In this document: in pieces, positions 9,784-30,282 of the stretch
Layout: every line of letters starts with the position of its first letter
How positions within the stretch are numbered: position 1 is the stretch's first letter
NCBI GenBank assembly: GCA_039188945.1
Contig: JBCCYW010000006.1
Coordinates: forward strand, 1 to 47,945
Reading direction: 5' to 3'
Length of the DNA: 47,945 bases
Source: Patescibacteria group bacterium
GTDB lineage: Bacteria; Patescibacteriota; Minisyncoccia; Phycocordibacterales; UBA918
Notes under the pieces: model-generated
Database searches by the model: none
What the model saw: the letters and a program-made list of their open reading frames with translations, nothing else
What the model was told of the DNA's origin: nothing
Translations under genes and position numbers: made by a program

Positions 9784-9811
9784 TTGACATCATAGAATTA
9801 ATTAGTAGGAT
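9784..9811 (+). promoter_or_regulatory. putative sigma70 promoter for the thrS leader
   Basis: TTGACA-16 nt-TAGGAT. Confidence 0.5.
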
Positions 9812-10150: not shown

Positions 10151-10238
10151 TGTCGGCAACTTACTAGCTTGGCGAAGCATCCGCAACGACAATACTCGGA
10201 GCGAGGACCAGCTGAGAGAAGTTAGTAGGTTGCCGACA
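10151..10238 (+). repeat. second palindromic element in the thrS leader
   Basis: 20-bp stem TGTCGGCAACTTACTAGCTT/AAGTTAGTAGGTTGCCGACA with two G-U pairs. Confidence 0.75.
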
Positions 10239-10256
10239 AAAGAACCCCATAAATCT

Positions 10257-12056
10257 ATGAACAGACCAATCGAACACAAACGACACACGCTTGCTCATCT
10301 CTTGGCAGCAGCGGTGCTGCAAGAATACCCGCACGCCAAAGTCACCCTGGGGCCAGCCATTGATGATGGTTTTTACTATGACTTTGATTTCTCTGGTGGT
10401 GAGGCGCCTGGTGAAGATGATCTGAAGAAGCTGCAGAAGACCATGAAAAAGTTGGTCAACAAATGGACTGATTGGACCGTGGAAGAAGTGTCTGCCGAAG
10501 AAGCAAGGCAACGCTTTGCCGGTAATGAGTATAAACTTGAACTCATTGATGACATTGCTGAGAAAGGTGAAGCTATTACCCTCTACACCGTCGGTGATTT
10601 TATGGATCTGTGTCGAGGTGGTCACGCAGAGAACCCGAGCAAAGACATTGCCATGGACGCCTTTAAGCTCGATAAAATTGCTGGTGCCTATTGGCGAGGT
10701 AGTGAGAAAAACCCAATGCTTACACGCATCTATGGCATTGCGTTTGACACCAAAGAAGAGCTCGAGGCATATGAACAGCAGCGTGAAGAGGCTAAAAAGC
10801 GCGACCATCGCAAGCTCGGCAAAGAACTAGACATCTTCATGATCAATGAGGAGGTTGGTACCGGTTTACCAATGTACCTACCAGCCGGAGCCACGATTCG
10901 GCAGACCCTAGAGCGATACTGCTATCAAGAAGCGAAGAAAGCTGGCTATCAGTACGTGTACACGCCGCACATTGGTAAGTCAGACCTCTTTGCCCGTAGC
11001 GGTCATCTTGATCATTACAAAGATGGCATGTTCTCGCCAATTGATATGACCAACCTTGATGGTGAAGGAGCAGACACCGAGGGCAAGGTTGAGCAGTTCT
11101 ATCTCAAACCAATGAACTGTCCGATGCACCACTATATCTATCTGAATCAGCCACGCAGCTATCGAGATCTTCCGTATCGCTTGTATGAGTATGGGACCGT
11201 CTACCGCTATGAAGATAGCGGTACACTCAGCGGTTTGATTCGAGTTCGCGGGTTTACCCAGAATGATGCCCACGTGTACTGTCGCACGACCCAACTCAAA
11301 GAAGTGATCGGAGAAGCAATCACTCGCTTCCAACAGGCATATACTGACATTGGTATTACTGACTACAAGATGCGTTTCAGCCTACCTGACTTTGAGAACG
11401 AACCGGAAAAGTTTGATGAAGAAACCCAGGAGTGGATAGACTCAGTGGCAGCTATGCGTCAGGCCTTGGATGAGCTTGGGGTTGAGTACTACGACGCCAT
11501 CGGTGAAGCCGCCTTTTATGGACCAAAGATCGATATCATGACCAAGAACGTGAACGGCAAAGAAGACAGTCTGTCGACCATCCAGGTTGATTACTCGATT
11601 GCTCCGAAGTTTGGCATCACCTACACCAACGAGAACGGCGAAGACGAAGTCCCGGTCATCATTCACATGGCACTCATGGGATCGATCGATCGCTTCATGG
11701 CGTTTATGATCGAGATGACTGGTGGCCGTCTGCCGTTTTGGCTCGCGGCAACCCAGATCAAAATCCTTACAGTGAACAATGAGGAGGAGACCTTGGCGTA
11801 CGTTGAGAAAGTCAGCGCGATTCTTGACGATACTGTCTTGATGGAACCGCTTCGGTACAACGAAATCCGTTACGAGGTAGATAATCGAAACGAATCACTC
11901 GGTAAGAAAATTCGCGAAGCTGAGAGCTTGAAGATTCCTATGATGCTGATTGTTGGACCAAAGGATGTTGAGGCAAACACGGTCAACGTCCGTCATGGTG
12001 GAGAAGAAAAAACCGTGTCCCTTGATGAGTTACAAGCCTATGTTCAAGGGTTGTAA
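10257..12056 (+). CDS. thrS: threonine--tRNA ligase (no N-terminal TGS domain)
   Basis: RHTLAHLL, DLCRGGH, RDHRKLG, KPMNCPMH, RVRGFTQNDAH, AFYGPKID. Start set at the ATG at 10257. Confidence 0.98.
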   Translation: MNRPIEHKRHTLAHLLAAAVLQEYPHAKVTLGPAIDDGFYYDFDFSGGEAPGEDDLKKLQKTMKKLVNKWTDWTVEEVSAEEARQRFAGNEYKLELIDDIAEKGEAITLYTVGDFMDLCRGGHAENPSKDIAMDAFKLDKIAGAYWRGSEKNPMLTRIYGIAFDTKEELEAYEQQREEAKKRDHRKLGKELDIFMINEEVGTGLPMYLPAGATIRQTLERYCYQEAKKAGYQYVYTPHIGKSDLFARSGHLDHYKDGMFSPIDMTNLDGEGADTEGKVEQFYLKPMNCPMHHYIYLNQPRSYRDLPYRLYEYGTVYRYEDSGTLSGLIRVRGFTQNDAHVYCRTTQLKEVIGEAITRFQQAYTDIGITDYKMRFSLPDFENEPEKFDEETQEWIDSVAAMRQALDELGVEYYDAIGEAAFYGPKIDIMTKNVNGKEDSLSTIQVDYSIAPKFGITYTNENGEDEVPVIIHMALMGSIDRFMAFMIEMTGGRLPFWLAATQIKILTVNNEEETLAYVEKVSAILDDTVLMEPLRYNEIRYEVDNRNESLGKKIREAESLKIPMMLIVGPKDVEANTVNVRHGGEEKTVSLDELQAYVQGL

Positions 12057-12067
12057 GCCAGGCATCC

Positions 12068-12108
12068 AGGCACGAAAAAACCGGCCGCTGGCCGGTTTTT
12101 TCGTGCCT
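12068..12108. terminator. bidirectional terminator
   Basis: Perfect AGGCACGAAAAAACCGGCC/GGCCGGTTTTTTCGTGCCT between convergent genes. Confidence 0.85.
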
Positions 12109-12119
12109 CATCTATCACT

Positions 12120-15100
12120 TTATGAAAGCGCCTTAACTGCTTTCATAATAGACATTTTCACTGCTTCTTCTTCGGTAGAATAGGTACCATCAAGCGCTGA
12201 AGTAAGAGCGGCAATTGCAGCTTTGAGTTGCTCGTCAGAAAACTTATTTCCTTCTCCTTCAAGTAACTGAGACACTACTACGTTCTGTGAACCATGTCGT
12301 TTTCGGTAGAGAGCATCCAGGTCAGCCGCAGCATCAGCAAGCGAGAACATCGGTCGGTTACCGATCATCTGGTACGCCGCTGTCACATTACCAGTCACGA
12401 TCGCCTCAGCCAGTGAGCTTGTACCGGTTGGTACAGCTTTAGCGGCAGTTGGATCAGACTTCGCAGAAGCACCAATATACTTCTTACACAACTCCCCCAT
12501 GCGAGTTTTGTTGATCACCACCCAACCATCTTCTGCTGGGAAGGTCGCTTTTGCAGCAGTAATGAGTTCTTCCATATGTGCAACTCGTTCCGCTTCACGT
12601 GGAAAGGCGCTCACAAAGTGACGAATTGCATCACTTGAGAGTAGTACCTTATGCTCATGAGCTAGATCCTCAAGAGCTGACAGGCGTGCATCACTTGATT
12701 CATCAAGCGCTACCTCCTCTGTCTCTACATAATTAGCGTAACCAATGGTTGGTGTGCCAGTCGGGAGATTACTCGGTACTGTCGGTGCTGCTACACTGGC
12801 CACAACCGGCGCTTCTGTCTCTTCAGGAGCCTCATCTCGAACAAAGAGATCAGGGTTAATTTCATGCTGCTCTCTAGTCTCTGTAGCGATTACCGGAGCA
12901 GCGGCTAACGAAAAACCTGCAATCGAATCACGGCGGATAACGAGAATGTACGTTACGAAGAGTGCCCAAGCGATCAAGAGTGCGTAGAAGATGAAGGTCA
13001 AGATTGGACCAGCCTCAAAACCAGTGTATGGCGTCGCTGCTAGCGAGATACCAGCAACTAGTGGCTGCTGGTCTCGAATCTCAATCACCGTTACATCATT
13101 TTCTACCTCCACTTCAACTCGACACTCACGATCACGACGACCACGTTCAGCAGTCAGGGTGTATTCAGTGTCACGGTCTGGACGAAGCGTGATTGATCCA
13201 TCAAGGAGCTCATCTTTATCGTCACCAAGTAGATCGTCAGTTGAGATAATCACGTTGCCGCGATCGTCTTCAATGATAATGTCATTGGTTCGTGACGTCT
13301 CCCATCGGAGGGTAATTTCCTCTCCTCGAGTAATACTGGTGTCAGAGATATCAAGTTCACAACGTGGACTTGAAGAGCCCCCACCTCCGCCGCCACCGCC
13401 AGAACTGACGTCAACCGATACTGGACAGGTGATAGTATCAACACCGTCTGTCGCAGTCATCACGAAGGTCGTATCAACATCAGGACTTACTGTTTCAGAT
13501 CCTGTGAGATCAGTACTGGTAAGACCACTAATTGAGAGGCTGGTAATACCGGTTGTCGTCCAATCAAGCGTGACTGACTGACCGCGGTTGATGCTCGTGT
13601 CTGAGATAGTAAAGCTGACATTTGCCGCACACGAGATCGGGGTTGGCTCGTCTTCTTCTACATCAATTGCTACCGTACAAGCATTTTGATCACCATCAAG
13701 TTGTGAAGCGGTGAGGGTAAATACCGTATCACTGGTCACATTCACAGACGTGGTTCCAGTACCATCTACTGAACCAACGATTGGTGTAATCTCAACATTG
13801 TCAGCTCGAAGGGTTTCCCAACTCAGTTCTACATCGCCCCCACCAATTGGCAGACTAGTGCGATCAGCACCGAAGGCAACACACTCAGGAACTGGGTTCG
13901 TTTCATCTTCGACCTTAAGCGTTACTTCACACGAGTCTTGCTGACCATTAGTGCCAAAGGCAGTGAGGATATAGGTAGTATCTTCTAGTGGCGTCACTGG
14001 AAGTGAACCATCTTCGTCAACCTCACCAACACCGTTGTTGATCACCACCCGGTTGGTATTAGTTGTTTCCCAGGTAAGGGTCGCTGTACCACCACGAAGG
14101 ATCATCTGTGGATTTACCTCAAAGAGGTCACATGATGGAGCTGGTTCAACTGGTTCAGGATCAAGCGCTCCACAGATAGGTTGGAGGCTATTCGGTGAAC
14201 TGGTGTCTGGGAAGACAGCGTGAATTCCTTGGGCACCAGTAGCAGCTTCATTGAGGACAAAGCCAGTCTGGACCTGCTCGTTTACCAGCGCTTCTCGAAC
14301 TCGATCAGGAATATCTGAGTGGCTGTTGGTAGTCACCGTACCAGACGGAGTGACCAGTCCGAGCACATAACGCTCATTTGGTTGCGTTACATTTTCGCGA
14401 CCAATATAACCATCCCAACCAACAAGTGTTACGTCGTATGTACCAGCCGGCACGTTTACGTCAACAATACTCGTTCGTGAATTGGCTTCATCCTGATTGC
14501 TACGGATGCGCTCATCAGCAAAATCGATAATGATGCGACCGTCTTCAGGAAGGAGTGGACAGCTTGGCGGTTCTGGGTTTTCTTTTCGTACGTGTACGTT
14601 AGCGTGACACTGTACCTGCTTGCTATAACCAGTCGCAGTAAGGGTGTATCGCTGGTCACTAAAGAGTGGGTCGGTCGTGCCTGAATCATTCAGTGCAACT
14701 GAACCAAAATCGGTAAGTGTTACCGTATCAGCATTGGTGGTAGTCCAGGTAAATGAGGCTCGATCACCTTCATCAATTGTTTGGTTTTTTGGCGTAAGTG
14801 TACATTCGGGATGCTTCGCAACTGGCGGCAGACACTGTACGTAGACTGTCGCGTTACACTTGTGCTTGCCATCAGCTGACTTAGCTTCAAGCTTGTAGGT
14901 GGTATTAACCTGTACGTTAGTGTAAGTACGTGAACCCTTGTCTCCACTTACCAATTCGCCGTTGAGGTAAATACTGTCATAACCCTTGGTATCCCAAGAA
15001 ATAGTAACGCTGTTACCAACGTAAATAACCTCTGAACTAGCGCGCACTCGACAAAATCGATGTGAGACACTTTGATGGTCATTGTCTGGAATATCCAGAT

Positions 15101-15521
15101 CAGGAATGTCTAAGTCTGGGATATCGAGACTTGGGATACCAAGGCTTGGAATGTCTAGAGTTGGTACCGTCAATGACGGAGTATCGAGACTTGGTACATC
15201 GAGTTCCTTAGGGGTTTCAAGCTCCGGCACCTCGATCGCAGCCGGCACTTCTAGCTCTGGAACTTCGAGCTCCTTTGGCTCAACTTCGGGCACCTCGATC
15301 TCTGGCGCTTCCAGTTCTGGCACATCGAGTGATGGTGTGGCAAGATCTGGAATCTCCAAACCACCTTGATTGGTGGCTTCGACTGCGTCTGGAGTAAGAA
15401 TAGTGAGCTCATTGCGAGGATCATACGATCCAACCGCAAAGAGTCCTACGATAAACACTCCCAAAGCAATGGTTGGGATGAAAATGTTTTTAGTCATAGT
15501 TTTAGTAGTAATTGAGTTCAT
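12120..15521 (-). CDS. large surface protein with tandem Cys-paired Ig/PKD-like domains, internal TPYTG + TM and a C-terminal cytoplasmic domain
   Basis: N-terminal hydrophobic segment, (L/I)(D/E)xP repeats, about six repeats of C..TLxWxT..T(Y/F)xLTA..C, then LAATPYTG-TM-RRD and about 270 further residues. Confidence 0.85.
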   Translation of the reverse strand: MNSITTKTMTKNIFIPTIALGVFIVGLFAVGSYDPRNELTILTPDAVEATNQGGLEIPDLATPSLDVPELEAPEIEVPEVEPKELEVPELEVPAAIEVPELETPKELDVPSLDTPSLTVPTLDIPSLGIPSLDIPDLDIPDLDIPDNDHQSVSHRFCRVRASSEVIYVGNSVTISWDTKGYDSIYLNGELVSGDKGSRTYTNVQVNTTYKLEAKSADGKHKCNATVYVQCLPPVAKHPECTLTPKNQTIDEGDRASFTWTTTNADTVTLTDFGSVALNDSGTTDPLFSDQRYTLTATGYSKQVQCHANVHVRKENPEPPSCPLLPEDGRIIIDFADERIRSNQDEANSRTSIVDVNVPAGTYDVTLVGWDGYIGRENVTQPNERYVLGLVTPSGTVTTNSHSDIPDRVREALVNEQVQTGFVLNEAATGAQGIHAVFPDTSSPNSLQPICGALDPEPVEPAPSCDLFEVNPQMILRGGTATLTWETTNTNRVVINNGVGEVDEDGSLPVTPLEDTTYILTAFGTNGQQDSCEVTLKVEDETNPVPECVAFGADRTSLPIGGGDVELSWETLRADNVEITPIVGSVDGTGTTSVNVTSDTVFTLTASQLDGDQNACTVAIDVEEDEPTPISCAANVSFTISDTSINRGQSVTLDWTTTGITSLSISGLTSTDLTGSETVSPDVDTTFVMTATDGVDTITCPVSVDVSSGGGGGGGGSSSPRCELDISDTSITRGEEITLRWETSRTNDIIIEDDRGNVIISTDDLLGDDKDELLDGSITLRPDRDTEYTLTAERGRRDRECRVEVEVENDVTVIEIRDQQPLVAGISLAATPYTGFEAGPILTFIFYALLIAWALFVTYILVIRRDSIAGFSLAAAPVIATETREQHEINPDLFVRDEAPEETEAPVVASVAAPTVPSNLPTGTPTIGYANYVETEEVALDESSDARLSALEDLAHEHKVLLSSDAIRHFVSAFPREAERVAHMEELITAAKATFPAEDGWVVINKTRMGELCKKYIGASAKSDPTAAKAVPTGTSSLAEAIVTGNVTAAYQMIGNRPMFSLADAAADLDALYRKRHGSQNVVVSQLLEGEGNKFSDEQLKAAIAALTSALDGTYSTEEEAVKMSIMKAVKALS
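15084..15359 (-). repeat. pentapeptide (L/I)-(D/E)-(V/I/T)-P-(E/D/S) coding repeat
   Basis: LEIPD LATPS LDVPE LEAPE IEVPE ... LDIPS LGIPS LDIPD LDIPD LDIPD. Confidence 0.9.
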
Positions 15522-15711
15522 AAACTTGATACTCCCACCTACATAACGCGAGAGTAATAAAGGCTATGAAACAAAAGAGCGAGAGAACAAACGGGCCGAA
15601 GTTACGAGAACTTCCCCATCAAACGTTGCTATGTTTTATAACATTTTTATTAATTTGTCAATATTTCCACTGGCCAAGGATTTAAACGGTATGTTTCAAT
15701 ACTTGGTAGTG

Positions 15712-15748
15712 GAGGGGGCCAGAAAAGCACTGCTTTTCTGGCCCCCTC
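15712..15748. terminator. 17-bp perfect hairpin after the orphan lipoprotein gene
   Basis: GAGGGGGCCAGAAAAGC-act-GCTTTTCTGGCCCCCTC. Confidence 0.65.
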
Positions 15749-15752
15749 AATC

Positions 15753-16442
15753 TCAACACGGCTCATTCTGCGTTGACACCTGCAGTTTGGCTCGATAGAC
15801 GTATGTCCGGGACTTTTCGTCATACTGGCGATACGCCAGGTCCCTAAGTCGATCGCGTCGAAGATATGGCTGCCGCATCCCCTTTTCTGTACCAGCTTTC
15901 ACAGACAGAAATGGTGGGTTGGCTGACTGATACTCATCAGCTACAAAATCTTCGCGTCGATTGTTTGAAAACTCTATGAAGACGACTCCATCGTCTGGCA
16001 TTGTCAGTGTAACGATGCCGAGTTTCCGATCGCCATAGAGCGGTGTCAGTTCCTGAACCGATCCATTAAACTTACCGAAGAACCGAACTCCCCGAAGCCT
16101 ATGGAAGTAATAGTCTTTTCGCTTGAAGAAGCCACTTCCTATCGAGACATCATCAAAGCTGGATTCTTGGTCGTCTAAGTTCAACTCGACCAGGGTGCAA
16201 CGAGTTGGGCCTTTACCATCATGAGTGAACCCGATCACCGCATAGGCTTCTTTTGGAGCCTCGCTTTGAGCGGATTCTTCCGGCGTAATCAACCGATCTC
16301 CAGAAGCAATGTCTCGTAGGACATCTCCGGCAGAAAGATCCAGTACCTGGCCACCGTATGGTGTGCCTACCTGTACCGTGCAGCCTCCTGCGATCATAAG
16401 ACCGACAAAAGCGGAGGCTCTGATGATTGACATAACGTTCAT
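15753..16442 (-). CDS. hypothetical exported protein, possible lipoprotein
   Basis: AAAGGAGG SD; signal-like N-terminus ending IAGG|C. Confidence 0.65.
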   Translation of the reverse strand: MNVMSIIRASAFVGLMIAGGCTVQVGTPYGGQVLDLSAGDVLRDIASGDRLITPEESAQSEAPKEAYAVIGFTHDGKGPTRCTLVELNLDDQESSFDDVSIGSGFFKRKDYYFHRLRGVRFFGKFNGSVQELTPLYGDRKLGIVTLTMPDDGVVFIEFSNNRREDFVADEYQSANPPFLSVKAGTEKGMRQPYLRRDRLRDLAYRQYDEKSRTYVYRAKLQVSTQNEPC

Positions 16443-16578
16443 TGTTCAGGCCCTCCTTTGGCCAAGTTTCAGTTTTTTGAGATTTTTGTGAAGAACTTCT
16501 TGATTCGCACTTCTTTGAGCGAATCTTCCGGAGGAATCGAACGAGGATAGTTCGGTTCCCAGCGGAAGCGCCGCTACT

Positions 16579-17310
16579 TTAGAGTGATCGGGTTTCGATG
16601 AGTTTTGACTCAACGATGTACCGGTCATCTTTACTCGCAAAGCTGTTACAGGTAGCGAGCGTGAGTCGTGGGCCAGTATTAGCAATTGGTACTGTTACCT
16701 CACTTGCCTTTGCCTGATAAACTCGCTCCACTCGGTAAACATATTCCATGTCTTCAGACTGAAGTCGGATCGTATCACCCCACTCAAGGTTCTGAATTCC
16801 GTTGAAGGCTTGGAAAAATTCGTTTAGCACATTTGGCAAGTAGCTGGAGTGAGCCAGTACGAAAATTGTTCCTTCGTTGGTAAACGTGGCTGAATCAGGG
16901 TGCCGTACCGCGCCAGTCAGAAGAGCTTCATCTAAATCAGCAATCGAGCGAGAGGTTGGGTTGTTAATTGGGATGGTGCGGTCAAGTCGATCAATAATGA
17001 TTTGGTTTGGCAGAGCCGCCACATCTGCCGAAACAACTTCATCAAGCAATGAGACAGCTCCGGCTTCATTATGAATTCGGTCTACTGGTTCAACTGGTGT
17101 GTCTTGATTTTCAACTGGTTCTGCTTCGGCTTGGGCTTCGGCAGTAGTATCAGTTGCCTGAATGACGTCTTCGGCTGGTGCCTCGGGAATAAAATCAATT
17201 GCAAACAAAAGACCGTAACTCAGTACAAACACTCCAGCAAACACAATGAAGAACGGGCCTTTTCGTCGCCACGCAGTTTCAATAAGAATGTTTGTGTCTG
17301 GGCTGTTCAT
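16579..17310 (-). CDS. sortase
   Basis: N-terminal TM; catalytic His (LAHS), TLATC and Arg (DRYIV); GD.I.L...Y.YRV fold motif. Confidence 0.93.
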   Translation of the reverse strand: MNSPDTNILIETAWRRKGPFFIVFAGVFVLSYGLLFAIDFIPEAPAEDVIQATDTTAEAQAEAEPVENQDTPVEPVDRIHNEAGAVSLLDEVVSADVAALPNQIIIDRLDRTIPINNPTSRSIADLDEALLTGAVRHPDSATFTNEGTIFVLAHSSYLPNVLNEFFQAFNGIQNLEWGDTIRLQSEDMEYVYRVERVYQAKASEVTVPIANTGPRLTLATCNSFASKDDRYIVESKLIETRSL

Positions 17311-17323
17311 AAGTAATGATTAT

Positions 17324-17352
17324 ATATTATCACGAAATAAGGCTTTTGTCAA
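17324..17352 (-). promoter_or_regulatory. putative sortase promoter
   Basis: TTGACA-17 nt-TAATAT with an upstream TG on the minus strand. Confidence 0.6.
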
Positions 17353-17408
17353 TGGTATAGGGGCTTGTTTTGCAACGCTTTCCTCTCGAGACTATCACTT
17401 TTCGCTTG

Positions 17409-17437
17409 TTGACATTTAAACTTATTCATGGTAGTGT
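17409..17437 (+). promoter_or_regulatory. putative divergent promoter
   Basis: TTGACA-17 nt-TAGTGT with TGn extension, 9 nt before the ATG at 17447. Confidence 0.6.
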
Positions 17438-17446
17438 TGCGCCACT

Positions 17447-18499
17447 ATGAATAACGCACCACAGTCACAGAAGGACGCAATTATGAAATCGCTTGCTATT
17501 GCAGGCTTTGTTGCGATCATTCTCGTTATCGCTTGGTCAGCTGTACAAGTAATTAGCTTCCTGCCAAGCGCTTTCACGTCCCTCGCCTCTTTGGCCGATG
17601 GCGTGTATGAAAACCAACCGGTCGAAATCACCTTAGTGGCAGAAGAATCTATTGTTAATGCCGACGAGCCAGTGACCGTACGTTGGTCAAACGTGTCTGC
17701 TGCCGGCACCTTTGCTCTCAGCTATGCTTGTACTGACGGCATCTCACTCAATGTAGTGAGTGAAGCTGGTAATCAGAATCTTGATTGTGATACCAATTAT
17801 AATCTTGGTGACGTTCAAGAGACTACCCTGTCAGTAGAATCTGAGAAAAATCGTTTTACTGATGTTACGTACCAAATTGGATTCGTACCAGCAACTAGCG
17901 AAACCGTAACGGTTGTGTCTGAAGACGTACTGACTGTGGTTAATGCTAGTATTTCTCCTGCTCTCATTGTTGAAACTACTGACGTAAGTGATGAAGAAAC
18001 TGACGAGGCTACTGCTGAAGAAGTGGTGACCGAGGAAGAGGTCGAAGCAACAGAAGAAGATACTCCAAGCACTCCCGTTGCTCCTGCTCCAGAGGTGGTA
18101 GAAGAATTTGTGTTTGAAATTCCAGTCTCTAATCCTAATGGCTTCGTTGACCTCTCTGTAACGTATCTTGGTGTTGGCCGCCTCACCAGTGGCAATGCCT
18201 TTGTGCCCGGCAGTGACATTGATAACGATAGCCGAGGCGCCTTCCAATTTGAAGTAAAGAATATTGGTACCAAGACTTCAGACGAATGGGAATTTACTGC
18301 CGAGCTACCAACTGGCGGCGAATATGACTCACCTGAGCAAGACCCACTTCGTCCTAACGAACGATCTGTCCTCACCCTCGGGTTTGACTTCCCGAACGAC
18401 GACACGGGCATTGCCATGTTCCGGGTAGCGATTGATGAAGACAACGATAACAACCGCAATAACGACCGATTCGACTGGGCGGTAAATGTGGTGAACTAA
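17447..18499 (+). CDS. membrane-anchored acidic protein with a C-terminal CARDB/Ig-like domain
   Basis: N-terminal TM, Glu/Thr-rich linker, DLSV...FEVKNIGT...LRPNE...NRNND pattern. Confidence 0.8.
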   Translation: MNNAPQSQKDAIMKSLAIAGFVAIILVIAWSAVQVISFLPSAFTSLASLADGVYENQPVEITLVAEESIVNADEPVTVRWSNVSAAGTFALSYACTDGISLNVVSEAGNQNLDCDTNYNLGDVQETTLSVESEKNRFTDVTYQIGFVPATSETVTVVSEDVLTVVNASISPALIVETTDVSDEETDEATAEEVVTEEEVEATEEDTPSTPVAPAPEVVEEFVFEIPVSNPNGFVDLSVTYLGVGRLTSGNAFVPGSDIDNDSRGAFQFEVKNIGTKTSDEWEFTAELPTGGEYDSPEQDPLRPNERSVLTLGFDFPNDDTGIAMFRVAIDEDNDNNRNNDRFDWAVNVVN

Positions 18500-18513
18500 T
18501 ACCTCATTATAAG

Positions 18514-18557
18514 ACAAAAACAGGCCGGGCCCCTGCGGGTCCCGGCCTGTTTTGTTT
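18514..18557. terminator. bidirectional terminator
   Basis: AAAACAGGCCGGG...CCCGGCCTGTTTT between convergent genes. Confidence 0.85.
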
Positions 18558-18560
18558 TAC

Positions 18561-20672
18561 CTACACGTCCAAGTTAGCCAATTTTGCGTTACTTTGAATA
18601 AACGACTTACGACTTGAGACATCCGTTCCCATTAAGATATCAAATACCTTATCAGCTGCTTGAGCGTCTTCGATCGTCACTTGCTTGAGAAGACGATTCT
18701 CTGGATTCATGGTGGTTTCCCACAACTCTTCTGCGTTCATCTCACCCAGTCCCTTATAGCGCTGCTGGTTGATTTTCGCTCCTTTCTTCGCCGCTGCCTC
18801 TTCGGTAGTTTCTTCAGTAACTTCCTCCCCTTCTCCTTCCTCATCCATTTCAATCACTTCACCACCCATCGCTTTAATTACTTCAGCTTTCTCTTCTTCA
18901 ACATAGGCATAGCGGATATCTTTTCCTTTCTGAAGTTTATACAGTGGCGGCATCGCAATATACACATACCCACCATCTACCAATTCGCGGAAGTACCGGT
19001 AAAAGAGTGTGAGTAAGAGTGTACGAATATGGGCACCATCCACGTCAGCGTCAGTGGCAATAATGATCTTGTGGTAACGCAGCTTCGACGCATCAAACAC
19101 ATCACCAATCGCAGTACCCAGCGCAATCACTAAGTTCTTAATCTGCTCAGAAGCCAACATCTTATCGATGCGCGCCCGCTCGACATTGAGGATCTTTCCA
19201 CGCAACGGCAAAATCGCTTGGGTTTTTCGATCCCGACCCATCTTGGCTGATCCACCAGCTGAGTCTCCCTCTACAATAAAGAGCTCTGAATCTTCCGCTT
19301 TCTTACTCTGACAATCAGCCAACTTACCGGGCAAAGACAGGCCTTCAAGTGCTCCTTTACGCAACACGGAATCCTTTGCAGCCTTGGCTGCCTTACGCGC
19401 CTTCACGGCGATAATCACTTTGTTGATGATGGCTTTGGCATCATCGGGATGTTCTTCTAGGTACGCCTGGAAGGCCTCGCCAAATACCGACTCCACTGCG
19501 CCACGCGCTTCCACTGAACCAAGCTTACCTTTGGTTTGTCCTTCAAACTGAATCTCAGGCATCTTCACCGAAACCACAGCAGTGATTCCCTCCAAGACAT
19601 CATCACCGGTAAAGGCTCCTTCTTTTTCTTTAATAAAATTATTCTTCTTAGCGTAATTATTGAGCGTACGCGTGAGAGCTGTTTTGAATCCGGTAATATG
19701 CGTACCATGCTCGGGGTTATAGATGTTGTTCGCAAAGGCAGAGATGCGGGCAGAAATATCATCGACATACTGCAGCGCCACCTCAACAGCCATCACGCTC
19801 TGATCAACTTCCAACTTTTCGATGTAGAAAATATTCTTATGAATTGGCTTTTGGTACTGATTATTGAACGCCACCAAGGAACGCAAACCACCTTCAAAGT
19901 AGAAGGTCTGGTGCGGCACCTCTAGGTGCTCATCTGCCAAGTACTGCTTACCCTTAAGATCAAGGGATTTTTGTGCTTTCTCATCGAGTTCACGAGCGTC
20001 AATCACTGTAATGCGCGTTCCTTTTACCAAGTACGCTTGCTGACGAAGATGGGTCACGATTCGCTTCCACTCGTATTCGACTGTATTAAAAATGGTATCG
20101 TCCGCCTGGAACGTAATGACCGTACCCTGCATCTTAGATGCACTTACTTTCTTTACCTTTCCTTTAGCCTTACCGATGTTGTACTCCTGCATGTGATACG
20201 CTCCGTCGCGGTGTACTTCAGCAATAACGTGAGTCGAGAGCGCGTTGACGACCGACACACCAACGCCATGAAGACCACCCGACACTTTGTAACCTGACTC
20301 ATCACCACCAAACTTACCGCCTGCATGCAAGGTGGTGAGAATGGTCTCCAGCGCGGACACCTTTGTCTGTTTATGTTTGTCAACGGGGATACCGCGACCA
20401 TTATCAACGACACGAATGTAATTCCCTGGCAAGAGTGCCACCTCTACCCGGTCAGCAAACCCACCCATCGCTTCATCACGCGAATTATCAAAGACTTCCC
20501 AGATCAAATGATGCAAACCATCAGGACCGGTAGTACCGATATACATACCTGGGCGCTTACGAACCGGCTCAAGTCCCTCAAGGACGGCAATCGAAGTAGC
20601 GTCGTATTTATGCCCGGAAGCGGCTTTACTGCTTTTTTTTGGGACAGATTTTGCTGGTTTCTTTGTAGCCAT
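18561..20672 (-). CDS. gyrB: DNA gyrase subunit B
   Basis: VRKRPGMYIG, HAGGKF, SGGLHGVG, VEGDSAGGS, PLRGKILN, DADVDGAHI, RYKGLGEM. Confidence 0.98.
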   Translation of the reverse strand: MATKKPAKSVPKKSSKAASGHKYDATSIAVLEGLEPVRKRPGMYIGTTGPDGLHHLIWEVFDNSRDEAMGGFADRVEVALLPGNYIRVVDNGRGIPVDKHKQTKVSALETILTTLHAGGKFGGDESGYKVSGGLHGVGVSVVNALSTHVIAEVHRDGAYHMQEYNIGKAKGKVKKVSASKMQGTVITFQADDTIFNTVEYEWKRIVTHLRQQAYLVKGTRITVIDARELDEKAQKSLDLKGKQYLADEHLEVPHQTFYFEGGLRSLVAFNNQYQKPIHKNIFYIEKLEVDQSVMAVEVALQYVDDISARISAFANNIYNPEHGTHITGFKTALTRTLNNYAKKNNFIKEKEGAFTGDDVLEGITAVVSVKMPEIQFEGQTKGKLGSVEARGAVESVFGEAFQAYLEEHPDDAKAIINKVIIAVKARKAAKAAKDSVLRKGALEGLSLPGKLADCQSKKAEDSELFIVEGDSAGGSAKMGRDRKTQAILPLRGKILNVERARIDKMLASEQIKNLVIALGTAIGDVFDASKLRYHKIIIATDADVDGAHIRTLLLTLFYRYFRELVDGGYVYIAMPPLYKLQKGKDIRYAYVEEEKAEVIKAMGGEVIEMDEEGEGEEVTEETTEEAAAKKGAKINQQRYKGLGEMNAEELWETTMNPENRLLKQVTIEDAQAADKVFDILMGTDVSSRKSFIQSNAKLANLDV

Positions 20673-29310: not shown

Positions 29311-30282
29311 TTAATCCTGCAGTGCTTCTTCAGCTCCCTTAAGAGCGGCGAAGATATTGTCCCACTTACCAGCCATTACCTCTTCAATATTGTGCCAACT
29401 TTCCTTGATGCGGTGATCGGTAATACGATTTTGCGGGAAATTATACGTACGGATCTTTTCCGAGCGGTCACCGGTACCAATTTGCTTGCTGCGTACTTCG
29501 GCATGCTTTTTCGCCTCCTCTTCGGCATGCAGTGTTTCAAGCTTCGCGGTCAGGATACTCATGGCTTTTTCGCGGTTCTTGAGCTGCGAACGCTCCGATT
29601 CACTCCGCACTTCAACCCCGGTTGGGCGATGGACCAAGCGAACGGCAGTCTCTACTTTGTTGACATTCTGCCCACCAGCACCACCCGCTCGTGAGAATTC
29701 CATATCGATATCACCCATATCAATGTCAATTTTTGGTTTTTTACGCAACGGCAAAATTGCTACCGAGCAAGTTGAGGTGTGAATTCTTCCTTGCTTCTCA
29801 GTTACCGGGATACGCTGCACCCGGTGCACACCTGTCTCGAAGCGTAGATTCGGATACACATCTGGGTGAATAATTTCAAATACCGCTTCTTTATAACCAC
29901 CCATCGGTGAACGCGATTCATTCTCAACGCTATAGCGCCAACCCTGTACTTCAGCGAACTTCAAGTAGGCATTGGCGAGCTCTTCAGCAAACAGCGAAGC
30001 TTCATCACCCCCTGCCCCAGCTCGTACCTCAAGTGCTACCCCATATGGTCGCTCCTCCTCTTCTTTTGAAGCCTCAATAATTCGATCCATCTCAGCAAAC
30101 TGGACTTTGAGCTGTTCTTCAACCTCCCTCACTTCCTCAGCTGCCAATTCAGCCATATCTGGATCTTCAGCCATTACCTGGGCTTCTTCAAGCTTTTTCT
30201 GCCACTCCGAAAACTGCGACGCGAGAAACTGCGTTTTTGGATTTTCTTTAAATGTATTCAGTTTGTCTTGATCAAATTCCAT
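29311..30282 (-). CDS. prfA: peptide chain release factor 1
   Basis: [11 protein letters not shown] (PxT motif), [20 protein letters not shown]. Confidence 0.96.

Follow-up and report, generated by a model that had tools for sequence, protein, structure and literature searches.

Here we describe a sortase locus in a 47,945-nt stretch of DNA from a Patescibacteria group bacterium (GTDB lineage Bacteria; Patescibacteriota; Minisyncoccia; Phycocordibacterales; UBA918), namely contig JBCCYW010000006.1 of assembly GCA_039188945.1, positions 1 to 47,945; this whole stretch is referred to below as the window. Four open reading frames (ORFs) lie between thrS (10230-12056, plus strand) and gyrB (18561-20672, minus strand): the gene of a large candidate sortase substrate, an orphan ORF, a sortase gene and, divergent from the last, the gene of a CARDB-type membrane protein (Table 1). 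The locus is probably a dedicated sortase-substrate cassette of the Paceibacteria, that is, of Parcubacteria-type bacteria of the Candidate Phyla Radiation (CPR). Comparison of related genomes makes it likely that the sortase processes a PYTG-type motif of the substrate, which we assign to the LPXTG class and which lies in front of a membrane helix and a conserved cytoplasmic part.

In the best-known case of sortase function, class A sorting, the housekeeping sortase of Gram-positive bacteria anchors LPXTG proteins to the cell wall. CPR/Patescibacteria presumably live attached to other cells, and little is understood of the way in which they build their surfaces. The window is one contig (C6) of a 0.90-Mb genome in 29 contigs that is 97.8% complete; the related loci used for comparison come from metagenome-assembled genomes labelled Paceibacteria, Parcubacteria, Kaiserbacteria or Nomurabacteria.

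Table 1. Positions of the genes, protein segments, catalytic codons and possible signals at the locus
Feature	Position	Strand	Basis
Candidate sortase substrate gene, 1,133 aa	12120..15521	-	ORF list; full-length model
Substrate: N-terminal hydrophobic helix, residues 14-32, signal or anchor	15426..15482	-	model, sequence
Substrate: string of beta-sandwich (immunoglobulin (Ig)-like) domains, residues 155-807	13101..15059	-	model, fold matches
Substrate: LAATPYTG, residues 827-834 (TPYTG at 13020-13034, residues 830-834)	13020..13043	-	sequence
Substrate: membrane helix, residues 839-862	12936..13007	-	model; 23-residue hydrophobic stretch (840-862) in the sequence
Substrate: RRD, residues 863-865, positive stop-transfer, cytoplasmic side	12927..12935	-	sequence
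Substrate: NLPTG in disordered cytoplasmic linker, residues 918-922	12756..12770	-	alignments A1, A5
Substrate: cytoplasmic folded domain, residues 941-1133	12123..12701	-	model
Orphan ORF, 229 aa	15753..16442	-	ORF list
Sortase gene, 243 aa	16579..17310	-	ORF list; Pfam; NCBIfam
Sortase: catalytic H154	16849-16851	-	aligned to solved sortases
Sortase: catalytic C221, in LATC (TLxTC-type motif)	16648-16650	-	aligned to solved sortases
Sortase: catalytic R230	16621-16623	-	aligned to solved sortases
CARDB-type membrane-protein gene, 350 aa, divergent from sortase	17447..18499	+	ORF list
Sortase promoter-like site: TTGACA (17347-17352), 17 nt, TAATAT, TG before -10	17324..17352	-	promoter scanner, 10/12 matches
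TTGACA hexamer 33 nt before the CARDB-type gene start; best -10 TAGTGT, weak	17409..17414	+	absent from promoter-scanner output
Possible own promoter of the substrate gene: TTGACA (15656-15661) and A/T-rich -10-like stretch, ~115 nt upstream	15635..15661	-	absent from scanner output
Perfect 17-bp-stem hairpin (GAGGGGGCCAGAAAAGC / GCTTTTCTGGCCCCCTC) just past the orphan ORF stop codon, no T-run	15711..15747	-	sequence

The sortase, its candidate substrate and the motif

The sortase consists of an N-terminal hydrophobic segment (residues ~20-42), an acidic linker and a catalytic domain, which matches Pfam Sortase PF04203 over residues 105-237 with 60.8 bits against a cut-off of 26.6. The hydrophobic segment reads as a membrane anchor that would leave the catalytic domain facing outward. 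His154, Cys221 and Arg230 line up with the catalytic residues of the solved structures 2ln7, 2kw8 and 4d70 and are kept in all 84 related sortases aligned, so that the intact His/Cys/Arg triad reported by an earlier reading of the sequence alone (the sequence-only reading) is borne out. By sequence the nearest sortases are those of classes D and E, with Bacillus anthracis 2ln7 (E 4.9e-6) and 2kw8 and Clostridium perfringens SrtD 4d70 as the nearest solved members, all of which align over the catalytic region. The window sortase nevertheless falls far under the NCBIfam cut-offs of these classes, with 33.6 of 160 bits for class E, 31.1 of 165 for class D and 32.3 of 140 for SrtD; it likewise misses those of class C (22 of 160) and class GN (24.1 of 158), and the other sortase class models give no match at E<=0.1. 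Since no class model comes near its cut-off, we treat the protein as an unclassified member of the sortase superfamily. The motif of the candidate substrate matches neither LAXTG nor LPNTA, which we take to be the motifs assigned to classes D and E.

The candidate substrate gene lies downstream of the sortase gene on the same strand, separated from it by 1,058 nt, in keeping with the interval of about 1 kb between co-oriented genes given by the sequence-only reading. The AlphaFold model of the full-length protein has a mean predicted local distance difference test (pLDDT) value of 69.8. In it, the N-terminal helix is followed by a disordered Pro/Glu-rich spacer (residues 33-153) and then, over ~650 residues, by about seven beta-rich domains, each with a Cys pair and a Trp that are conserved in the alignment of relatives. 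The best matches of the model in the PDB are strings of Ig-like or beta-sandwich domains (GhpA, DSCAM, titin, contactin; E down to 1.6e-18), as the earlier description of a multi-Ig protein would lead one to expect. The motif itself, directly followed by FEAGP, sits in a linker modelled with low confidence (residues 808-838) that joins the last beta domain to the membrane helix; after FEAGP come the hydrophobic helix and RRD. The succession of LAATPYTG, transmembrane segment and RRD noted earlier is thus confirmed. The immediate context of the motif is ISLAATPYTGFEAG and GISLAATPYTGFEAGP in the window, the family-consensus counterparts being SLTQVPYTGFEAG and GISLTQVPYTGFEAGP. Residues 868-942, beyond the helix, are disordered as well (pLDDT <50). 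From this layout the motif is expected to lie on the outer side of the membrane. The only match of the 1,133-residue protein in Pfam and NCBIfam, to NMT1 (14.6 bits, below the cut-off of 20.5), was disregarded. Also, no tandem repeats were found in positions 12000-18600, where even the Pro/Glu-rich spacer forms no array at the DNA level at the threshold of the tool.

A search with the last 334 residues of the substrate against 1.84 billion representatives returned 499 relatives at E<=0.001. Among the best 150 of these, 125 carry [V/I/L]P[Y/H]TG followed by a helix, the other 25 being stand-alone C-terminal domains; VPYTGF was found 99 times, IPYTGF ten times, LPYTGF six times and TPYTGF twice. 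The window's ATPYTG recurs in one representative, P0003, and judged from these relatives the T at motif position 1 is a rare sub-lineage variant. In alignment A5, all 28 full-length relatives agree in P831, T833, G834, F835, A837, G838 and P839 and also in the columns F845, Y846, L849, W852 and Y858 of the membrane helix. Basic residues follow the helix in most relatives, a minority having none directly after it. VPYTG or IPYTG is present at 68 of 70 loci of named Paceibacteria/Parcubacteria genomes, and three of these loci hold extra paralogues with canonical LPETG, LPDTG or VPETG.

At greater distance the pattern becomes more telling. Across the whole order, 40 loci mostly from different families all carry the motif, with P in 40, G in 40 and T in 39; position 1 is V in 19, I in 18, L in two and A in one, and the middle position is Y in 35, A in three, S in one and N in one, with E at this position in one locus beyond the 40. 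Furthermore, the helix sequence and FEAGP diverge in the distant relatives while L[S/T]Q[V/I/L]PxTG persists. A fixed P, T and G, a variable x and an aliphatic residue at position 1 mark the element as in all probability an LPXTG-class signal, [V/I/L]PxTG. The sequence-only reading had spoken of a non-canonical TPYTG and of a sortase recognising xPYTG, and had made its proposal depend on conservation of the motif in orthologues. Conservation of P, T and G does extend to the level of the order, but neither wording survives, because the relatives have V, I or L at position 1 (39 of 40) and Y occupies the variable position. What is non-canonical is the internal placement of the signal before a conserved cytoplasmic domain. 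Within the 0.90-Mb genome the window motif is the only PYTG site joined to a hydrophobic segment, and no other convincing substrate with [V/I/L]PxTG plus helix or with canonical LPxTG was found there. One VPTTG match, on contig C23, was rejected as a substrate; it lies inside a polytopic membrane protein.

Association of motif and sortase across the order

Co-occurrence was assessed in 151 genomes of the order, 49 of which are positive for the substrate module and 102 negative. The sortase is present in 48 of the module-positive genomes, compared with 23 of the module-negative ones. The sole module-positive genome lacking a sortase match (G297, locus L147; 92% complete, with ~5% contamination) carries APYIG where [V/I/L]PxTG would be expected. 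The sortase gene is found upstream, in the same orientation and no more than 10 kb away, in 39 of the 49 module genomes, and six of the ten misses are at a contig edge; at the loci from named genomes it is upstream in 58 of 70, with 11 of the 12 misses at a contig edge and the twelfth (L097) in a frameshift-ridden sequence where gyrB is split too. The co-occurrence that the sequence-only reading had named as a check is found in presence (48/49 vs 23/102) and in adjacency (39/49). Its pairing of the sortase with the PYTG protein is supported by conservation and co-occurrence, and its wording of the motif has had to be given up.

The order thrS, substrate, sortase, CARDB-type gene, gyrB is the same at 20 of 20 loci of the genus, and at loci L107-L111 sortase and substrate remain adjacent though thrS is no longer their neighbour. 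A further test of the pairing came from 20 sortase regions in 19 module-negative genomes. Ten of these regions hold a sortase of the window type, and in seven of the ten there is a downstream protein with [V/I]P[Y/E/A]TG and a helix, with a tail of 36-343 residues. The pairing is thus seen where the cytoplasmic domain is lacking, which indicates that the link to the sortase belongs to the motif and not to that domain. A class-wide search found the module in two of 151 genomes; in the samples searched, the module in its modelled form does not extend beyond one order.

The same genome encodes a second sortase pair, outside the window (contig C3, 43000-52000; locus L113 of G000). Its 230-residue sortase has no significant BLAST similarity to the window sortase (E = 1). 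It lies beside a surface protein of 1,820 residues with DUF642, SdrD_B and carboxypeptidase-regulatory-like domains above the Pfam cut-offs, and with PA14 and LTD matches below threshold; the sortase and a 372-residue membrane protein with a CAP domain follow the surface protein. The 1,820-residue protein ends in ..IVPLGAPNAGAGG, a helix and RRNATE, its signal in this genome being GAPNAGAGG. Sortases of this type adjoin a large surface protein in every genus locus fetched, with ..P.GAPN[T/A]GAGG, helix and basic residues truly at the C-terminus; the signal is GLPNTG or GFPTTG in other families, and the CAP-domain membrane protein follows in five of the eight genus loci fetched. The two pairs are alike in having a sortase beside one large surface protein with P-x-[T/A]-G, a helix and basic residues, and differ in that the C3 signal is truly C-terminal and the accompanying protein carries a CAP domain instead of a CARDB domain. 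Judged from the loci compared, each sortase type has its own private type of substrate.

Partner gene, cytoplasmic domain and intergenic DNA

The divergently transcribed gene encodes a protein with an N-terminal helix, the sequence SLASLA, a beta domain with two conserved Cys residues, an acidic, Thr- and Pro-containing linker and a C-terminal CARDB-type domain. The window protein has no Pfam match at E<=0.1; its assignment comes from homologues, eight of 15 of which pass CARDB PF07705 (23.8-35.7 bits, cut-off 22.7) through the aligned C-terminal domain. The divergent CARDB-like protein of the sequence-only reading finds support through these homologues. SLASLA (residues 45-50), conserved and right behind the N-terminal helix, fits a signal-peptidase site of the A-x-A type, and by this feature the protein may be set free instead of staying anchored in the membrane.

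No gene accompanies this sortase more constantly than the CARDB-type gene, which remains beside it even where the substrate gene lies elsewhere (L124, L126, L169); its neighbourhood marks it as a third, conserved component of the cassette and not an incidental neighbour. Additionally, a natural fusion of 465 residues was found in genome G306 (L181, 6477-7874, minus strand), in which a membrane helix, a sortase domain (Pfam Sortase, 74.1 bits), a Thr/Asn-rich linker and a CARDB/DUF11-like domain (DUF11 23.1 bits, just below the cut-off of 24.6) follow one another, the last being homologous to the window's CARDB-type protein (BLAST 2e-13). The fusion argues that sortase and CARDB-type protein act together outside the cell. 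Long sortase ORFs in G304 and G204 were rejected as further fusions, since they have N-terminal extensions only, leaving G306 with the sole sortase-CARDB fusion. No invariant Lys and no pilin-type motif were found in an alignment (A3) of 20 CARDB-type proteins. A structure-based complex test combined substrate residues 715-840 with the catalytic domain of the sortase and scored the CARDB ectodomain as their partner; a control reached about the same score as the complex.

The cytoplasmic part of the substrate comprises ~270 residues, a disordered linker being followed by a folded domain that is modelled with a pLDDT of 85. This domain is made up of an alpha/beta subdomain resembling an AAA+ lid (model residues 42-118) and a helical subdomain resembling a clamp-loader collar (residues 134-235). 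Structure comparison with VIA-align gave Z values of 9.0-10.0 with the gamma, delta and delta-prime chains of clamp loaders and of 7-9.4 for the lid only, and matched the collar subdomain to the delta-prime collar 8val_E with Z 9.4 and a root-mean-square deviation of 3.1 A over 102 residues; according to a warning of the tool, such Z values may be generic for helical domains, so we speak of a resemblance to clamp loaders and not of membership. The best Foldseek E value was 1.8e-3, and an ESM Atlas look-up of the domain gave no usable match. Domains II-III of the clamp-loader gamma, delta and delta-prime subunits show lid and collar in the same order; the window domain differs from them in showing no sequence similarity (11-17% identity), in its tether to a membrane helix and in lacking an ATPase core, the model containing no P-loop or domain I and the preceding region being disordered.

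The arrangement of this domain varies among relatives. The tail after the motif ranges from 36 to 375 residues, and from 38 to 77 in split-gene forms. At loci L033/L089, L034, L091 and L105 the cytoplasmic domain is a separate downstream ORF that overlaps the motif-bearing gene by 7-60 nt, and in further genomes it is truncated. In G009 (L032, L088) a gene for helix and domain with no ectodomain stands beside the sortase, and the motif-bearing protein is encoded on another contig. A domain that is separate, truncated or missing in many genomes is dispensable in cis. The linker contains a conserved element of its own, NLPTG, in which P, N, L and P are invariant in alignment A1; in A5, P916, L919 and P920 are invariant and N918 is nearly so. 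A conserved G-Y follows a few residues later. NLPTG misses LPxTG by a single residue and, being cytoplasmic, is on the opposite side of the membrane from that where the sortase would act.

The interval between sortase and substrate genes is a variable slot. In the window it holds the orphan ORF, whose product has a lipoprotein-like N-terminus (..LMIAGGC..), has no match in Pfam or NCBIfam, retrieved only itself from a search of 5.8 billion clusters, and found nothing by BLAST against 90 related loci. Elsewhere (loci L027-L108) the slot is occupied by unrelated small ORFs of secreted type with signal-peptide or lipoprotein-like N-termini, some having twin-arginine-like leaders. The hairpin just past the orphan ORF was not reported by the terminator scan.

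TTGACA is strongly depleted in the window: 35 sites were expected and 14 are present, and none of 100 shuffles had fewer than 14. This lends the intergenic copies some added credibility as signals. The promoter scan gave fewer promoter-like sites for the region overall than for its shuffles. The sequence-only reading had placed back-to-back TTGACA promoters between the sortase and CARDB-type genes; both hexamers are there, and only the minus-strand one, in front of the sortase gene, meets the criteria of the scanner. TTGACA sites include those at 9784, 15656, 17347, 17409, 29660 and 29724, several of them intergenic, and the copies at 29660 (plus) and 29724 (minus) form a second close pair on opposite strands.

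Mechanism, alternatives and significance

By analogy with LPXTG sorting, Cys221 would attack the T833-G834 bond, and the Ig-string ectodomain would then be transferred to an amine acceptor. The favoured acceptor is the peptide stem of lipid II or peptidoglycan, the CARDB-type neighbour being the other candidate. Everything from G834 to the C-terminus, that is, a short stub, the membrane helix and the cytoplasmic part of ~270 residues, would remain membrane-bound as a protein of its own. The genome encodes MraY, three PBP (penicillin-binding protein) transpeptidase domains and two FtsW/RodA proteins, and can accordingly make a peptidoglycan acceptor; FemAB was looked for in the genome and not found. 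The class A paradigm shares with the window the His/Cys/Arg triad, the TLxTC-type motif, the export helix, the succession of P-x-T-G (preceded by an aliphatic residue in the relatives), helix and basic residues, and the peptidoglycan genes. It differs in serving many substrates genome-wide, whereas here there is one private, adjoining substrate, in which L[S/T]Q extends the motif, T occupies position 1 and the signal is internal, next to a sortase that reaches no class cut-off.

Several observations weigh against processing of the motif by the sortase of the cassette. The sorting-type signal is internal, with 299 residues C-terminal of G834, and NCBIfam, including its sorting-signal models, gives no match to the 1,133-residue protein at E<=0.1. 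T at position 1 accounts for two of the 118 PYTG sites among the best 150 of the 499 representatives. In the closer relatives, FEAGP and the helix are conserved far above what is usual for sorting signals, as would suit a stable bitopic protein. The block of gyrB, CARDB-type gene, sortase, substrate and thrS is syntenic group-wide; gyrB and thrS being part of it, the adjacency of sortase and substrate is in part inherited, and presence or absence was used instead. Related genomes are not independent, which is why raw counts are preferred here to a Fisher value. The sortase also occurs in the 23 module-negative genomes mentioned above, and in G029 and G201 sortase and CARDB-type gene stand beside thrS with no substrate gene between them. 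Within the window, the orphan ORF, the hairpin and the separate TTGACA between the two genes suggest that sortase and substrate are probably not co-transcribed here. Moreover, the evidence for cleavage is comparative throughout, and both the cleavage and the anchored product are what we infer from it.

Much of this would be accounted for if the substrate were a stable, uncut bitopic receptor or adhesin, in which LSQVPYTGF(E)AGP serves as a structural or interaction element, binding outside is linked to a partner inside, and the sortase acts elsewhere. The well-folded, conserved domain within the 299 residues after the motif, the conservation of helix and flanks among closer relatives, the silence of the sorting-signal models and the genomes that keep sortase and CARDB-type gene with no adjoining substrate gene all speak for it. 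Against it, the distant relatives lose the helix and FEAGP sequence and keep [V/I/L]PxTG, the variable position being exactly the x of LPXTG. Tails of 36-375 residues, with the cytoplasmic domain absent or separate in many genomes, argue that a linkage in cis is not needed, the module is almost always accompanied by the sortase (48/49), and the genome shows no other candidate substrate on which this sortase could act. We therefore consider an uncut protein improbable. That the motif might be a chance look-alike of LPXTG beside a sortase, with no functional link between them, draws some plausibility from the ease with which short motifs arise randomly and from a first residue that is T instead of L; conservation of P, T and G over hundreds of representatives and ~40 families of the order, together with the strong co-occurrence of motif and sortase, reduces its likelihood almost to nothing.

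A different question is where the ectodomain would go after a cut at PYT|G. The acceptor could be a protein. It might be the CARDB-type neighbour, or the substrate might be linked to other copies of itself to form a pilus-like polymer, as class C sortases do, and the outcome would be a covalent surface fibre or complex. The constancy of the CARDB-type gene beside the sortase, its persistence with the substrate elsewhere and the CARDB-like domain at the sortase C-terminus in L181 would fit such an acceptor, yet the fusion fits a helper role of the CARDB domain equally well. Given also that the 20 CARDB-type proteins share no invariant Lys or pilin-type motif, that the class C signature is missed (22 vs 160 bits) and that the genes for peptidoglycan synthesis are present, a protein acceptor appears very unlikely.

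Processing of the motif by the sortase thus remains the likely reading, and it raises the matter of the remnant. In Streptococcus gordonii, a cleaved sorting-signal remnant, the short peptide 'C-pep', is reportedly sensed by a two-component system, so that a membrane remnant has a function of its own; the remnant in the window would be far larger, ~300 residues with a folded domain. A tentative proposal, which we rate as unlikely, is that cleavage by the sortase is a one-shot switch, yielding an Ig-string adhesin linked to the wall or to a partner and a membrane-tethered cytoplasmic remnant, with the clamp-loader-like domain and the NLPTG element of the linker, that is freed or unmasked and acts inside the cell. 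With equal reserve, one may suppose that the remnant reports successful surface display or recruits a cytoplasmic partner, and surface assembly would then be tied in fixed stoichiometry to an event inside the cell. Natural forms in which the gene is split or encodes the remnant only could then, just as speculatively, be uncoupled versions of the same device.

In the literature, a sortase family is stated to occur in more than half of CPR genomes (passages of PMC6744442), and sortase pili are mentioned, as background only, in passages of PMC13278184. Full-text searches, which cover few subscription journals and exclude supplements, found no paper on the present motif, and the passages of these two articles that they returned do not contain it.

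The findings from this comparison outline an order-wide rule, in which one unclassified sortase goes with one private Ig-string substrate bearing L[S/T]Q[V/I/L]PxTG and with one CARDB-type partner. In hundreds of genomes it could serve to annotate surface proteins that are missed by the curated sorting-signal models. The natural variants provide ready controls, among them motifs with A, S, N or E instead of Y, the T at position 1, genes that are split, the sortase-CARDB fusion and the sortase-less APYIG genome. To our knowledge, a sorting signal placed before a conserved cytoplasmic part of ~270 residues is unusual for sortase systems; if the substrate is indeed cleaved there, sortase processing can yield a second product, inside the cell.

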